Sequence record: MW233709
Reading direction: 5' to 3' (one strand)
Origin: Escherichia phage UPEC01
DNA: 64,000 bases
The notes beneath the pieces were generated by a model. The model made no database searches, was not told the DNA's origin, and was given only the letters and a program-made list of their open reading frames with translations. Of this stretch, positions 419 to 35,215 are shown piece after piece. Positions within the stretch are counted from its first letter, which is position 1. Each line of letters starts with the position of its first letter. Made by a program: the position numbers and the translations under genes.

Positions 419-574
419 ATGAAACCTGCTCAATATGCAATGACTTTATACCTTGAAGTTAATGGCGATATTACTGAATTTTTTAAATTAATGCAACAGC
501 GCGGAAAAAGTTTTGCAGTTACTGAGCGTCAATTTTACGCTTGCCGTAAAAATACATACAATCGTTATGCGTGA
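419..574 (+). CDS. small hypothetical protein (51 aa)
   Basis: ATG preceded by GGAGAATAAAATG Shine-Dalgarno context shared with other early genes here; below ORF-track size cutoff. Confidence 0.4.
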   Translation: MKPAQYAMTLYLEVNGDITEFFKLMQQRGKSFAVTERQFYACRKNTYNRYA

Positions 575-19616: not shown

Positions 19617-19890
19617 TTTCGATACACAGAAAACTGAATCGCCTTCCGGGGCGATTAGTAAACAGCAAAACGGGCTTGATATTGAAGCCATGGTTGAGTC
19701 AACTGAAATGTCTTATCTGGAAGCTACGACTGCCTGGTTGGAAGAACGTGGTGTTCCTGAGGGTAATTTTGCTCGATATATCCCGGCAGGAATCATTGAT
19801 AAGATTATGAACGAAGCATATGATGATAACTTGCTTCGTCCGAGTATGTCTCGTACACAGAAAACTAATACGCTGGACTTTTTGTTATGA
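19597..19890 (+). CDS. 33: late promoter transcription accessory protein gp33
   Basis: ATG at 19597 overlapping dsbA 3-prime end; KIMNEA....LLRPSM.R..KTN.LDFL matches T4 gp33 C-terminus. Confidence 0.75.
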   Translation: MMSSLVNFDTQKTESPSGAISKQQNGLDIEAMVESTEMSYLEATTAWLEERGVPEGNFARYIPAGIIDKIMNEAYDDNLLRPSMSRTQKTNTLDFLL

Positions 19891-20555
19891 TTACGATTCG
19901 CATGCCTCCAAATAACAACCGATATATAAATGGTAAATCAGTATACCAACTGTACTTATCCATCAAACAGCATTTTTCGGGTCGTTATGATATTATCAAA
20001 TATAACTGGACCATGCGAATCTCCGATAGTGCTTATCAAAAACGTCGCGATAAGTATTTTTTCGAAAAGCTTAGCGATAAGTACACTCTCAAAGAATTAA
20101 CGTTAATATTCATGTCAAACCTGGTTGCGAACCAGGATGCATGGATAGGCGATATAAGTGATGCCGATGCTCTGATATTTTATAGAGAATACATTGGTAG
20201 ACTTAAAAGAATTAGACAAGTATACGAAGATGATATAAAGAACATCTATTACTTCAGTAAGAAAGTCGAAGTCAAATCGCTCCAAGAGATTTTCGAGTAT
20301 AATACTAAAGTGAACACAAGTTATATTTTCAAACTTCTCCAATCGAATGTTATCTCATTTGAAACGTTTTGTTTGCTTGATTCATTTTTAGGTATTATAA
20401 ATAAACATGATGAACAGACTAACGACTTGGTTTGGGAAAAGTATTCAACCAAACTAAATGCCTATAAGAAAATCTTAAATATAGATTCTCTTGAAGCTCG
20501 TAAATTGTTCATCGAGACCGTTAAAAACTGTCAAATAACGCTTCAATCACTTTGA
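19887..20555 (+). CDS. 59: helicase loader gp59
   Basis: 222 aa; near-identity blocks to T4 gp59 (YI.GKSVY.LYL.IKQH, KRRDKYFF.KLS.KY.LKEL, NLVANQDAWIGDISDADAL.FYREYIGRLK, SYIFKLLQSN.ISFETF). Confidence 0.9.
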   Translation: MITIRMPPNNNRYINGKSVYQLYLSIKQHFSGRYDIIKYNWTMRISDSAYQKRRDKYFFEKLSDKYTLKELTLIFMSNLVANQDAWIGDISDADALIFYREYIGRLKRIRQVYEDDIKNIYYFSKKVEVKSLQEIFEYNTKVNTSYIFKLLQSNVISFETFCLLDSFLGIINKHDEQTNDLVWEKYSTKLNAYKKILNIDSLEARKLFIETVKNCQITLQSL

Positions 20556-20615
20556 AGTATAATTAATACGTAATCAAAACAACTGCTAAAAATCAAATAA
20601 TCTAAGGAAAATCAT

Positions 20616-21527
20616 ATGTCTATGTTTAAACGTAAAAACCCTGCTGACCTGGCTGCTTCCCTTAACGCTCTGAAAGGTGGTGCTGGTTTCTCTTCTGACG
20701 ATAAAAAAGAATGGAAACTGAAAGATACTGATGGTGTCGGCTCTGCGGTTATTCGTTTCCTGCCTTCTAAGAATGAAGAAAATCCATCTCCGTTCATCAA
20801 GCTCGTTAACCACGGCTTTAAAAACGCGGGTCAATGGTATATTGAAAACTGTACTTCTACTCACGGTGATTATGAAAACTGTCCTGTGTGTGCGTACATG
20901 AATAAGAATGACCTGTACAATACAAACGAATCCGAATATCGTAAACTGAAGCGTAATACTTCTTACTGGGCTAACATCCTGGTCATTAAAGACCCTGCTG
21001 TTCCGTCTAATGAAGGTCAAGTATTCAAATACCGCTTCGGCAAGAAAATCATGGACAAAATCAACCAGATGGTTGAAGTCGATGTTGACATGGGTGAAAC
21101 TGCTATCGATGTAACTTGTCCGTTTGAAGGTGCGAACTTCGTACTGAAATCTAAAATGGTTTCCGGTTATAAAAACTACGATGATTCCAAATTCATGAAC
21201 CAGTCTGAAATCGCTGGTATCAATGATGAAGCATTCCAGAAAAAACTTTGGGACGAAATGTCTGACCTGAATGAATTGCTGGTATTTAAATCTCTTGAAG
21301 AGAATCAGAAGAAATTCTCTAAAGTAATGGGTACGGCTGCTCTCGGTGGTGCTGCTTCTAAAGCTGCTGCGCAAGCCGATAAACTGGGCGCTGACCTGGA
21401 CGATTTTGATAAAGATATGGAAGACTTCACTTCCAGCAAACCTGCTAAGTCTGAACGCACTGCGACTGCTCCAAGCACTCCAGAGCCTTCTGATGATGGT
21501 CTTGACGACCTTCTGGCTGGCCTTTAA
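20616..21527 (+). CDS. 32: ssDNA-binding protein gp32
   Basis: 303 aa; [43 protein letters not shown], acidic C-terminus; matches T4 gp32. Confidence 0.95.
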
Positions 21528-21532
21528 TATAA

Positions 21533-21557
21533 GGGGACCTTCGGGTCCCTTTTTTAT
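21533..21557 (+). terminator. intrinsic terminator after gene 32
   Basis: GGGACC-TTCG-GGTCCC hairpin plus TTTTTTATTTT. Confidence 0.75.
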
Positions 21558-21569
21558 TTTCAAAAAGTA

Positions 21570-21599
21570 GTGTACAAGTCCCTTGAGCTAAGGCATAAT
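21570..21599 (+). promoter_or_regulatory. early promoter cassette
   Basis: AAAAAGTAGTGTACA ... CATAAT right after gene 32 terminator. Confidence 0.6.
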
Positions 21600-21637
21600 G
21601 ATTCCATCAACTACTGATAACAACTGAGGAAATAAAA

Positions 21638-22000
21638 ATGGAAATCGGCAAAAAATATGAGTTCAATCCACATCGTATTAAATCTTTCATTGATATTAGT
21701 TCATCGAATGCTAGTATGGTTGACATCATCCAAGAAAATGGCGGTTGGTTTGAAGTTAAATCAATATCAAGTGCAGACGGCTATGATTATGTAACCGAAA
21801 TCATTTGTGCTAATGGTGCAATCTATAATGATGATGGCATGGGTGATGATTATTTTGAACTTAGTGAAGAAGAGTTTTATTGCTTCCGTGAATACTCTAG
21901 TTATACAAAAACACCTTCAGGGGCGGTTTCTATTAATTGTGTTGTAGATGTTAATAACGTCGACCAAATCATTGAACTTCTACAAAAAGCTTTCAAATAG
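21638..22000 (+). CDS. hypothetical protein (120 aa), paralog of 22350-22718
   Basis: ORF after early promoter; shares GK.Y.F..., DYFEL.E.EF motifs with 22350 ORF. Confidence 0.5.
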   Translation: MEIGKKYEFNPHRIKSFIDISSSNASMVDIIQENGGWFEVKSISSADGYDYVTEIICANGAIYNDDGMGDDYFELSEEEFYCFREYSSYTKTPSGAVSINCVVDVNNVDQIIELLQKAFK

Positions 22001-22002
22001 CA

Positions 22003-22033
22003 GTTTACAACGGGTCTATGATTATGTTATTAT
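22003..22033 (+). promoter_or_regulatory. early promoter cassette
   Basis: GTTTACA ... TATTAT with inverted repeat GGTCTAT/ATAGACC. Confidence 0.5.
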
Positions 22034-22062
22034 AGACCTATCAACTACATGAGGAAAATAAA

Positions 22063-22290
22063 ATGGCTAAGGTTAATATTGATATCGTTGATTTTGAATA
22101 CACTTACGAAGTTATTCGTAATCGGTATCCTTCTTTGTGTATGACTTACATTAAAGATACTGAAGTCTTTGGTATTCAAATTGAAGTCCAAGGTCCTCTT
22201 GAAGATATTACCCGCTTTATGCAAAATGAATATTGTGACGGTATGTACCCAGAAGACGCTGAATTTTATATGGGTTTGATTCAAGCTTAG
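22063..22290 (+). CDS. hypothetical protein (75 aa)
   Basis: ORF after early promoter 22003-22033. Confidence 0.45.
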
Positions 22291-22319
22291 TATACAAACC
22301 AACTGGAACATGATAATAT
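22290..22319 (+). promoter_or_regulatory. early promoter cassette
   Basis: GTATACA ... GATAATAT inside inverted repeat GGAACAT/ATGTTCC. Confidence 0.5.
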
Positions 22320-22349
22320 GTTCCCTCAATTGAATATGAGGAAATTAAA

Positions 22350-22718
22350 ATGATGGAAACTGGTAAATTTTACGTATTAGACCCTGCTGCCAAAAAACAA
22401 TTCATCGCTGGTAGTCCTGATGACAATTCGCGTATGATTAAGTTGATGGAACAACATGGTAGTTCCTTCAAAGTCCTGGACATGTGCTTTATTGATGGCG
22501 ATTATTTTGTTGAAAAAGTTGAAATGAAAGATGGCACCATCCTGGATAGTATGGATGGTGCTGATGAGTACTTTGAACTCGCTGAATGGGAATTCCGTCA
22601 CTTCATAGAAGTAGATGGTGATGCTCCTGATGTTGATACCCAAACCATTCATGTGCAAGTCAATCACAAAAATGCAGCAGAAGTCATTGCACTGATTAAA
22701 GCAACTTTTGGGGTCTAA
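22350..22718 (+). CDS. hypothetical protein (122 aa), paralog of 21638-22000
   Basis: ORF after early promoter; N-terminal GKFY...KKQFIAG motif also present in 34673 ORF. Confidence 0.5.
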   Translation: MMETGKFYVLDPAAKKQFIAGSPDDNSRMIKLMEQHGSSFKVLDMCFIDGDYFVEKVEMKDGTILDSMDGADEYFELAEWEFRHFIEVDGDAPDVDTQTIHVQVNHKNAAEVIALIKATFGV

Positions 22719-22719
22719 C

Positions 22720-22974
22720 ATGACTAAAGATGATTTCCTGGATGCAGTAGAAAAAGCAAGCGAACAGTTTGAAGTAATGGGTGTACGAGTTCATAAAGAC
22801 AGAAATTATGGTCTGGATGTTCAAACATACTCATTATGGCTTGTTGGTGAGCACAGTCTTGCAACCAATCTGGTGATGGGTATGGATGTTCATCCTTTAT
22901 TAGTTAAGTTCAGAAGTATGGAAAAAGCCACCAAGGAAATGATTAAACTTGGCAAATGGCTTGATAAAATTTAA
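22720..22974 (+). CDS. hypothetical protein (84 aa)
   Basis: ATG at 22720; track start 22708 is TTG. Confidence 0.45.
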   Translation: MTKDDFLDAVEKASEQFEVMGVRVHKDRNYGLDVQTYSLWLVGEHSLATNLVMGMDVHPLLVKFRSMEKATKEMIKLGKWLDKI

Positions 22975-23051: not shown

Positions 23052-23291
23052 ATGAAATTACAACGTGAGAGCATCAAAGATTCAGAAGTTAAAGGCAAAT
23101 GGTACTTCACAATCCAGGGTAACAATCCAGAAGCTCTGGAAAAAGCTGAAGAAACTTTATGCGCGATGGGTTGGAAAGATGAGTGCGATGGTTGCCCTCT
23201 TTATGAAGATGGTAGCTCATCTGGTTTCTGGATTCACCACTCTGACGTTGACCAATTTAAAGCTGACTGGAAAGTTGCTAAGAAAGCGTGA
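23052..23291 (+). CDS. hypothetical protein (79 aa)
   Basis: ORF with GGAGAATAAAATG RBS after early promoter 22981-23010. Confidence 0.5.
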   Translation: MKLQRESIKDSEVKGKWYFTIQGNNPEALEKAEETLCAMGWKDECDGCPLYEDGSSSGFWIHHSDVDQFKADWKVAKKA

Positions 23292-23301
23292 GGAAAATAT
23301 A

Positions 23302-25077
<1,776 letters not shown>

Positions 25078-34614: not shown

Positions 34615-34643
34615 GTTTACTTTCACCACGGATGGTGTATAAT
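34615..34643 (+). promoter_or_regulatory. early promoter
   Basis: GTTTAC, 17-bp spacer, TATAAT; hairpin CACCA/TGGTG in spacer. Confidence 0.55.
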
Positions 34644-34672: not shown

Positions 34673-35215
34673 ATGAGTAATTTCTTTGAAGAAGGCAAGT
34701 TTTACAAGTTCGCATCTGAAAATGCCAAAAAACAGTTTATTGCCGGAGGCTGGGCAGCTAATTACCAAATTGCCAAATACATCGGTATGACTCCGTTTGA
34801 AGTTAAGATTGTCCCTGATACTGCTAGCGGTGGAAGAAAAGTTTGTGAGATTCGTTTGATTGATGAAAAGAATTTTGTGGATTTGGCAAAAATATCTGGT
34901 GCAGAAAACAGGCATCATGGGGCAATGTTTGTTTCTGCTGGTCCATTGTCTGATGAATTTGATTATTTCATCCAAGCGGAAGTTGGCGTTAAGCCAGAAG
35001 TTGAACCTGTGCCAGTAAAACTTGCATCAGTTTGGAAATTGCTTGTGGTTAAAAATGGCAAGATTGAGATTAACTCTCGTCATGTGTCAAAAGAATATGC
35101 GGAAGGCGAAGCAGAGCGTCTGTTAAACCATGGTACTGCAGAAGATTGCTATATTATCAAAGGCGATATCACAAAAGCTTCTATCATTAAACAAGTAAAA
35201 CAGGAGACAATCTGA
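34673..35215 (+). CDS. hypothetical protein (180 aa)
   Basis: ORF after early promoter 34615-34643; N-terminal GKFYKF...KKQFIAG motif shared with 22350 ORF. Confidence 0.5.
   Translation: MSNFFEEGKFYKFASENAKKQFIAGGWAANYQIAKYIGMTPFEVKIVPDTASGGRKVCEIRLIDEKNFVDLAKISGAENRHHGAMFVSAGPLSDEFDYFIQAEVGVKPEVEPVPVKLASVWKLLVVKNGKIEINSRHVSKEYAEGEAERLLNHGTAEDCYIIKGDITKASIIKQVKQETI

Follow-up and report, generated by a model that had tools for sequence, protein, structure and literature searches.

The window analyzed here is a stretch of 64,000 nucleotides of Escherichia phage UPEC01 (sequence record MW233709). Its source is a Gaprivervirus-type T4-like phage, and the 3.7 kb of the locus that were compared are 100% identical to Escherichia virus TH41 and 95–97% identical to the Gaprivervirus phages VR20 and SP18. 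Two small genes, frd.2a and frd.2b, lie in the early region between gene 32 and frd, a location that is syntenic with T4, SP18, VR20, and JS10, and a third gene of interest, ORF3, lies about 12 kb away from the pair (Table 1). The order of frd.3 and frd.2 is swapped relative to T4. The frd.2b product would have 121 instead of 122 residues if the second ATG (22353) were the start.

Table 1. Features of the gene 32-frd region and of the ORF3 locus (positions in the window)
Feature	Position	Strand	Description
gp32	20616-21527		
Gene 32 terminator	21531-21552		
Early-promoter-like cassette upstream of frd.2a	21571-21599	+	TGTACA, 17 nt, CATAAT; directly past the gene 32 terminator; stem-loop weak
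frd.2a	21638-22000	+	120 aa, pI 4.2; type-A Frd.2; ortholog of T4 Frd.2 (79% identity); Pfam PF03197, E 2.4e-35
PeSL-type cassette upstream of frd.3	22004-22039	+	TTTACA, 18 nt, TG-TATTAT; 11-bp stem-loop (22012-22039) over the −10 box
frd.3	22063-22290	+	PF05798; outside the Frd.2 family; sits between the two Frd.2 copies
Cassette upstream of frd.2b	22291-22323	+	TATACA, 15 nt, GATAAT; 7-bp stem-loop (22306-22323) encloses the −10 box
frd.2b	22350-22718	+	122 aa, pI 4.45; type-B Frd.2 (Dhakavirus/Gaprivervirus type); PF03197, E 4.9e-32
Small ORF 3′ of frd.2b	ends 22974		phrog_4423; true start probably ATG 22720
Cassette upstream of frd.1	22982	+	T4-early-type motif; 10-bp stem-loop over the −10 box
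frd.1	23052-23291		DUF5417
Further small ORF	between frd.1 and frd		
frd	23640-24221		
Early-promoter cassette upstream of ORF3	34616-34643	+	TTTACT, 16 nt, TATAAT; short CACCA/TGGTG stem between the boxes
ORF3	34673-35215	+	180 aa; between cd.3 and cd.2; equivalent to JS98 orf212 and VR7 gp232

frd.2a and frd.2b Are Full-Length Paralogs of the T4 Frd.2 Family

The products of frd.2a and frd.2b align over their full length at 31% identity, with 50% positives (BLASTP, E 2e-14), and each is the only significant match of the other among the 488 ORFs of the window (phmmer, reciprocal E ∼5e-12). The earlier note had described the two as similar along their whole length and had named a lack of significant pairwise similarity as what would speak against this; both searches bear the description out. 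Indeed, the motifs singled out there (GK.Y, YFEL.E.EF, and the C-terminal N....I.L...F) fall on invariant or near-invariant columns of a 21-sequence family alignment, which comprise G5, K6, Y8, Y74-F75-E76-L77, E81-F82, F85, N108, L115, and F120. Both proteins match phrog_622 (Frd.2) and score far above the Pfam gathering cutoff of 29 bits that defines membership in PF03197 (FRD2), with 121.6 bits for frd.2a and 111 bits for frd.2b. Judged by these alignments, the two genes are true paralogs, each a copy of T4 frd.2. The pair is already known, as frd.2a and frd.2b in the public annotation of SP18 and JS10. Frd.2 is thus a named family, and the wider GoF/MotB.1/Frd.2 family with its LSm-like N-terminal domain, some 80–90 residues predicted to fold as a bent antiparallel sheet or barrel of five strands, has been defined and is conserved across Tevenvirinae (Kim et al., 2025, PMC12152347); neither had been recognized in the earlier note.

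In T4, Frd.2 is likewise acidic, has about 120 residues, and is encoded in the gene 32-frd region; frd.2a is its ortholog, whereas frd.2b, at 32% identity to T4 Frd.2, is a full-length paralog with the same architecture. T4 has one copy, located after frd.3, whereas in UPEC01 two copies flank frd.3, with the T4-type copy before it. The same two lineages are present in SP18 (Gaprivervirus) and JS10 (Dhakavirus). frd.2a is 98% identical to SP18 frd.2a, and frd.2b is 89% identical to SP18 frd.2b and 84% identical to the JS10 gene labelled "frd.2a." Unlike in UPEC01, the two SP18 copies are adjacent, without frd.3, and in JS10 the type-B copy precedes the type-A copy, the latter being just 57% identical to frd.2a.

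ORF3 Is Related to the Pair through Its N-Terminal Domain

The earlier note had also proposed ORF3 as a third member, from a motif shared at its N terminus. Pairwise evidence for this is weak. BLASTP aligns ORF3 with frd.2b over 32 residues only (E 1e-4) and finds no match to frd.2a, and the phmmer similarity of ORF3 among window ORFs has an E value of 0.007. ORF3 has no Pfam match and hence stands outside PF03197, a search of NCBIfam gave no match, and the C-terminal half of the protein is unrelated to Frd.2. Such data could be read as a short motif shared by convergence or chance, with ORF3 unrelated to the pair. Profile comparisons argue strongly against that reading. The ORF3 and Frd.2 families align over 85 columns in hhalign (E 5.3e-6, probability 86%), spanning ORF3 residues 5–107 and Frd.2 residues 2–93 and including an EF.YF motif. 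ORF3, whose own PHROG is phrog_5804 (2e-69), matches phrog_622 at 1.4e-4, and reciprocally Frd.2b matches phrog_5804 at 1e-3; phrog_3710 is matched by both ORF3 and frd.2a. Furthermore, goF profiles match ORF3 (phrog_2980 at 1e-8; hhalign to the T4 GoF alignment, E 5e-5), and ORF3 is the best match among window ORFs when T4 GoF is the query. The predicted order of secondary-structure elements in the N-terminal halves is identical, and the ORF3 model finds a GoF protein of phage VR7 by structure (see below). A chance origin of the similarity is therefore very improbable. ORF3 is a homolog of the Frd.2 pair over its N-terminal ∼100 residues, with support at the profile level, and the third member suggested earlier holds as a distant relative. 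The homology extends well past the N-terminal motif that had first been noticed.

Like other members of the GoF/MotB.1/Frd.2 family (PMC12152347), ORF3 combines an N-terminal five-strand barrel, as predicted, with a variable C-terminal domain and a phage-restricted distribution, and it matches both the GoF profiles and a GoF model. Unlike them, it is longer (180 residues), near neutral instead of acidic, and carries a C-terminal domain of its own, and its gene lies between cd.3 and cd.2, not near gene 39. The recognition of ORF3 as a GoF-like protein whose C-terminal domain is its own is an addition of the present analysis. Proteins of the ORF3 type are annotated as unnamed hypothetical proteins and occur in Gaprivervirus and Dhakavirus only, in 83 records.

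The links within the wider family differ in strength. Compared directly by profiles, Frd.2 and GoF match weakly (E 0.005, probability 7.5%), and profile comparison did not recover a link of MotB.1 to the window proteins. Single-sequence word-indexed searches return close relatives only, and a mixed alignment is needed to draw in GoF and MotB.1.

Two further ORFs were considered as a fourth member, 419-574 and 585-851, from weak phmmer matches to Frd.2b (E 0.046 and 1.6, respectively). The first has no PHROG match, the second belongs to the unrelated phrog_2390, and both were rejected. Searching the window with a broad family HMM recovers no ORF beyond the three.

The Family Is Small and Confined to Phages

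An exhaustive profile search with ORF3, GoF, and Frd.2 against 1.84 billion representative proteins yielded, at E ≤ 1e-3, no more than 90 representatives, and in some of these the N-terminal domain occurs two or three times within a single protein. All ten of the ten clusters sampled were phage-named or contained at least one phage-sized contig. The GoF/MotB.1/Frd.2 family is phage-restricted and small.

The earlier note had proposed the distribution across T4-like phages as a check. Frd.2 is conserved among phages: tblastn locates relatives in at least 887 phage records, at 969 places, and around 80 records hold more than one copy. The Vequintavirinae phage A7_1 carries three tandem copies, so the family reaches beyond Tevenvirinae, which the present analysis adds to the published description. 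Frd.2 is also unusually variable; even among Tequatrovirus alleles, identity to frd.2a spans 34–78%.

Predicted Structures Share an N-Terminal Barrel

Structure prediction had been put forward in the earlier note as a further check, and the AF2 models of Frd.2b and ORF3 show the same N-terminal fold order of one strand, two helices, and four strands. The Frd.2b model (pLDDT 87.8, from a 40-sequence alignment) has a strand at residues 7–10, helices at 12–21 and 23–36, and strands at 39–48, 51–59, 64–66, and 85–88. The ORF3 model is of moderate confidence overall (pLDDT 69.9), with its N-terminal blocks mostly at 73–92, and places a strand at 10–13, helices at 16–24 and 28–37, and strands at 42–49, 54–62, 86–89, and 99–102. 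The common domain of ∼90–100 residues is thus predicted to be a small SH3/LSm-like β-barrel whose first strand is followed by two inserted helices.

The C-terminal parts of the models differ. In Frd.2, the prediction continues with a lower-confidence acidic linker and a short strand, and an amphipathic helix (109–120 in Frd.2b) closes the C terminus. In ORF3, where the GoF/Frd.2-type domain occupies roughly residues 1–105, a disordered or low-confidence linker (106–118) would lead to a different and larger domain, a separate strand-strand-helix-strand unit at ∼121–163 (about 119–165).

Searching predicted viral structures (BFVD) with the ORF3 model by Foldseek gave 40 matches at E ≤ 1e-3, all of them uncharacterized phage proteins. 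T4-like phages that infect a variety of hosts account for most, and the matches include the VR7 protein labelled "GoF putative mRNA metabolism modulator." Against the PDB, Foldseek found nothing significant for either of the two models (best E 0.6 and 1.3), the top, non-significant neighbors being FeoA, Tudor, and chromo domains, and no PDB sequence was matched in a profile search at E ≤ 10. In its modelled form, the small, bent, five-stranded antiparallel barrel resembles Hfq/Sm (LSm) proteins and the SH3-like barrels of FeoA and Tudor. It departs from Hfq/Sm in the two helices that the models of the window proteins insert after strand 1, and Frd.2 is strongly acidic, lacks the Sm motifs, and has no significant sequence or structure match to that group.

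Promoter Cassettes and the Origin of the Two Copies

As the earlier note had read from the sequence, frd.2a and frd.2b each stand behind a promoter cassette of their own, and so does ORF3. Strongly strand-specific and enriched, the T4-early-type motif (T[GTA]TAC[AT], 14–18 nt, NAT[AT]AT) occurs 18 times on the plus strand and once on the minus strand, compared with 3.5 ± 1.9 in shuffles; five of these copies open the cassettes before frd.2a, frd.3, frd.2b, frd.1, and ORF3 (Table 1), and each of the five is followed by GAGGAAA...ATG. Early expression of all three genes is predicted from these upstream σ70-type early-promoter motifs. A generic σ70 scan of the locus showed no enrichment over shuffles (12 versus 8.5 ± 2.9) and left the frd.2b cassette uncalled; with its 15-nt spacer, this cassette may be a weak promoter.

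The cassettes are of the PeSL type, whose modular shuffling has been demonstrated in RB49/phi1 (Arbiol, Comeau, Krisch et al., 2010, PMC2839356). As in PeSLs, a σ70-like early promoter whose −10 box is overlapped or closely adjoined by a stem-loop is followed by a Shine-Dalgarno sequence and ATG, small non-essential ORFs in hyperplastic regions are flanked, and homology between genomes breaks at these points. Unlike the PeSLs of RB49/phi1, the UPEC01 stems are short, at 7–11 bp, without the GGGG...CCCC that is typical there, the stem-loop is weak for ORF3, and the frd.2a cassette is nearly stemless. In UPEC01, recombination between cassettes is a possibility suggested by genome comparison.

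That comparison shows a different gene order in every lineage considered, with the breakpoints located at the cassettes. From gene 32 onward, the order is frd.3, frd.2, frd.1 in T4; type B, type A, orf, frd.3, frd.1 in JS10; type A, type B, orf, frd.1 in SP18; and type A, frd.3, type B, orf, frd.1 in UPEC01. Blocks of DNA homology between genomes stop within the intergenic cassettes, and the cassette before the first Frd.2 gene of JS10 matches the UPEC01 frd.3 cassette at 88%. Across the locus, identity to JS10 is 85% for frd.3, 84% for frd.2b, 92% for the next ORF, 95% for frd.1, and 71% for gp32. frd.2a stands apart, with only 57% identity to the JS10 type-A copy compared with 84–95% for its neighboring genes. 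Since it is 79% identical to T4 Frd.2, frd.2a is a T4-like gene in an otherwise Dhakavirus-like neighborhood. Mosaics occur at the level of domains too: phage LF82-1 has two copies whose N-terminal domains are 58% identical and whose C-terminal tails differ, one being T4-like.

The earlier note had explained the pair by cassette-driven duplication and divergence, and such an origin in place is not supported by these data: both lineages coexist in JS10, in the opposite order, and frd.2a is far closer to T4 than to the JS10 copy. The low mutual identity of the two copies and their closer relatives in other genera (79% in T4, 84% in JS10) mean that the duplication is old, and type A (T4-like) and type B (Dhakavirus-like) are ancient paralogous lineages. 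We infer that the present layout would have arisen by shuffling of PeSL cassettes together with substitution of a T4-like allele for the type-A copy, and not by duplication on the spot. The xenologous origin that this gives to the type-A copy, itself an ancient paralog, is drawn from a handful of genomes and from identity values rather than a reconciled phylogeny; it appears, together with the placement of ORF3, as what the present analysis adds.

Both Frd.2 copies are functional and evolve under purifying selection, though they are less tightly constrained than gp32 and frd. Pairwise dN/dS values of the Frd.2 copies against SP18, VR20, and JS10 are 0.13–0.23, those of gp32 and frd, calculated with SP18 and VR20, are 0.01–0.04, and by the same measure there is no sign of gene-wide positive selection in either copy. 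The earlier note had regarded the region as an arms-race locus, a description that these gene-wide values leave unsupported, although individual sites could differ. In its full form, the arms-race reading would have a recent local tandem duplication followed by fast divergence under conflict with host defenses, the proteins being anti-defense or counter-defense factors. The spread of Tequatrovirus alleles, the records with two or more copies (and three in tandem in the Vequintavirinae phage), the mosaics of N- and C-terminal domains, and the setting in a hyperplastic, cassette-rich early region would all suit it. However, copies that share only 31% identity and have closer relatives elsewhere are not what a recent duplication would leave, dN/dS does not exceed 1, and neither Pfam, PHROG, nor NCBIfam gave a match to a known defense or anti-defense family. 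We therefore hold a recent arms-race duplication to be quite unlikely, and favor old lineages rearranged by cassette shuffling.

Acidity and the Proposed Role of the Family

Frd.2 proteins of T4-like phages have pI values of 4.2–4.7 (about 4.3) and net charges of −9 to −15, mostly located in the barrel, where the net charge is −7 to −14. In A7_1, one of the three copies is milder (pI 5.05, net charge −5). ORF3 is near neutral, with a pI of 6.45 and a net charge of +2 in its N-terminal part.

The functional background of the family comes mainly from GoF. A reporter mRNA with the gene 41 5′UTR is stabilized, with a longer half-life, by the mutant GoF(D25Y) only, wild-type GoF and MotB.1 being inactive in the RNA reporter assay, and AlphaFold3 gives no confident multimers or hexamers for GoF or MotB.1 (PMC12152347). 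Taken with the fold, called LSm-like by Kim et al. (2025), and with the near-neutral charge of ORF3, the effect of GoF(D25Y) could suggest that all three window proteins are genuine RNA chaperones of the Hfq/Sm kind, which would form rings, bind RNA directly, and stabilize or remodel phage or host transcripts. Several observations count against this. The acidity of Frd.2, and of its barrel in particular, argues against basic faces; there is no match to a Pfam LSM or Hfq family at E ≤ 1 and no Hfq/Sm chain among the top 50 Foldseek matches in the PDB; the two helices are placed between strands 1 and 2 and are not the N-terminal Sm helix; and neither the AlphaFold3 results nor the inactivity of wild-type GoF and MotB.1 in the reporter assay fits such a chaperone. 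A role of this kind is, in our judgment, unlikely.

Since Frd.2 acidity makes for a poor fit to an Hfq-like RNA-binding surface, a basic protein partner is favored. Judged from net charge, such a partner, perhaps a host factor that binds or processes RNA, would be more likely than naked RNA, and this argument against direct RNA binding by Frd.2 is a further addition to the published picture.

The account that joins these observations, and which we consider probable, is that the three genes encode members of the GoF/MotB.1/Frd.2 family, belong to old lineages, were arranged by cassette shuffling, and have a putative post-transcriptional role in host takeover. As a tentative mechanism, the Frd.2 pair and ORF3 would be early accessory proteins of host takeover, the barrel would serve as a binding module, and, by analogy with the GoF(D25Y) mutant, the proteins may act post-transcriptionally on mRNA metabolism. 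The two Frd.2 paralogs and ORF3 would then probably have different specificities, although our confidence in each of these steps is low.

A more specific proposal, in our view improbable, is that Frd.2-type proteins are acidic SH3-like decoys that neutralize particular basic nucleic-acid-binding proteins of the host, or a defense sensor, with ORF3 as a distinct effector class. Candidate targets would be an RNA-degradosome component, Rho, or an Hfq-type factor. If Frd.2 proteins were decoys, the two to three divergent copies and the swapping of halves and cassettes would match host variation, and ORF3 would attach a new C-terminal domain to the shared barrel.

Given that the pair and the family are already annotated and published, the genomic observation itself is ordinary and the additions made here are modest. 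Two old lineages side by side, a differently tailed third relative, and the acidity of the pair nevertheless provide handles for finding a partner or a phenotype. The phenotypic data on T4 frd.2 point in two directions. In a CRISPRi-ART screen, which knocked down genes across the T4 genome, frd.2 was the only T4 gene without a known function that was called "Fit" (PMC11879866), a lone call that a decoy function would also explain. This call conflicts with the behavior of T4 frd.2 amber mutants, which plate normally (PMC12152347), and it might reflect polar effects on the downstream genes frd and td.

Probable exchange of the frd.2a segment

The order of frd.2 and frd.3 in the window is inverted relative to that in T4, and the segment carrying frd.2a, the T4-type copy of the gene, has the highest DNA identity to T4 within the locus (80%; gene 32 and frd reach 67-70%). 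Because the order is swapped and this segment is the most T4-like DNA of the locus, comparison of the sequences suggests that the frd.2a segment is an exchanged cassette. Further upstream, gene 32 directly follows gene 59, as in VR20 and JS10, whereas in SP18 and T4 the homing endonuclease gene segG lies immediately upstream of gene 32.

T4-early-type promoter motifs are strongly biased in orientation across the whole window (18 on the + strand, one on the − strand), and those on the + strand look like repeated promoter-early stem-loop (PeSL)-like cassettes throughout the early regions. Several of these motifs are nearly identical; TGTACAAAC.C.TGGG...AGTATAAT, for example, is present at both 1573 and 1985.

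Positions of features in the window and in comparison phages
Feature	DNA	Position	Strand
Early-type promoter motifs (examples)	window	356, 943, 1573, 1985, 4571, 31029, 38305, 62536	+
51-aa ORF	window	419-574	
phrog_2390 gene (88 aa), after the 51-aa ORF	window	585-851	
Gene 59-gene 32 junction	window	19887-20616	
Inverted frd.2/frd.3 order	window	21622-22284	
ORF after frd.2b, as called	window	22708-22974	
Type-A Frd.2 gene	VR20	1439-1702	
Adjoining Frd.2 copies	LF82-1	1553-2363	
Tandem Frd.2-family genes	A7_1	2115-3248	

Gene boundaries and a rejected family member

The ORF after frd.2b, the type-B copy, was called mechanically from a TTG that overlaps the end of frd.2b. Its true start is probably the ATG at 22720: residue 5 is the first position covered by the PHROG match, and in SP18 and VR20 the counterparts are annotated as 255 bp. 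The type-A Frd.2 gene of VR20 is annotated as only 264 bp, without the N-terminal ~32 codons found in the window copy; either its start may have been mis-called or the gene may be damaged.

The 51-aa ORF has a faint similarity to the Frd.2b helix region (FFKLMQQRGKSFAV). With this similarity weak and no match in the PHROG search, its membership of the Frd.2 family is unsupported, and it may represent either an orphan ORF or a remnant.

Domain arrangement and range of the Frd.2 family

The two Frd.2 copies of phage LF82-1 have N-terminal domains that are 58% identical and C-terminal tails that differ, one of them nearly identical to that of T4; these sequences point to an exchange of N- and C-terminal halves by recombination. 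In some other family members, including P0218 (274 aa) and P0265 (354 aa) from the profile search, the N-terminal barrel domain occurs two or three times within one polypeptide, and such proteins are fused tandem repeats, not tandem genes.

A7_1, a non-T4-like phage of the Vequintavirinae, carries three Frd.2-family genes in tandem (124, 119 and 125 aa), and the range of the family therefore extends outside the Tevenvirinae, contradicting the confinement to that group implied by the title of Kim et al. (2025; PMC12152347).
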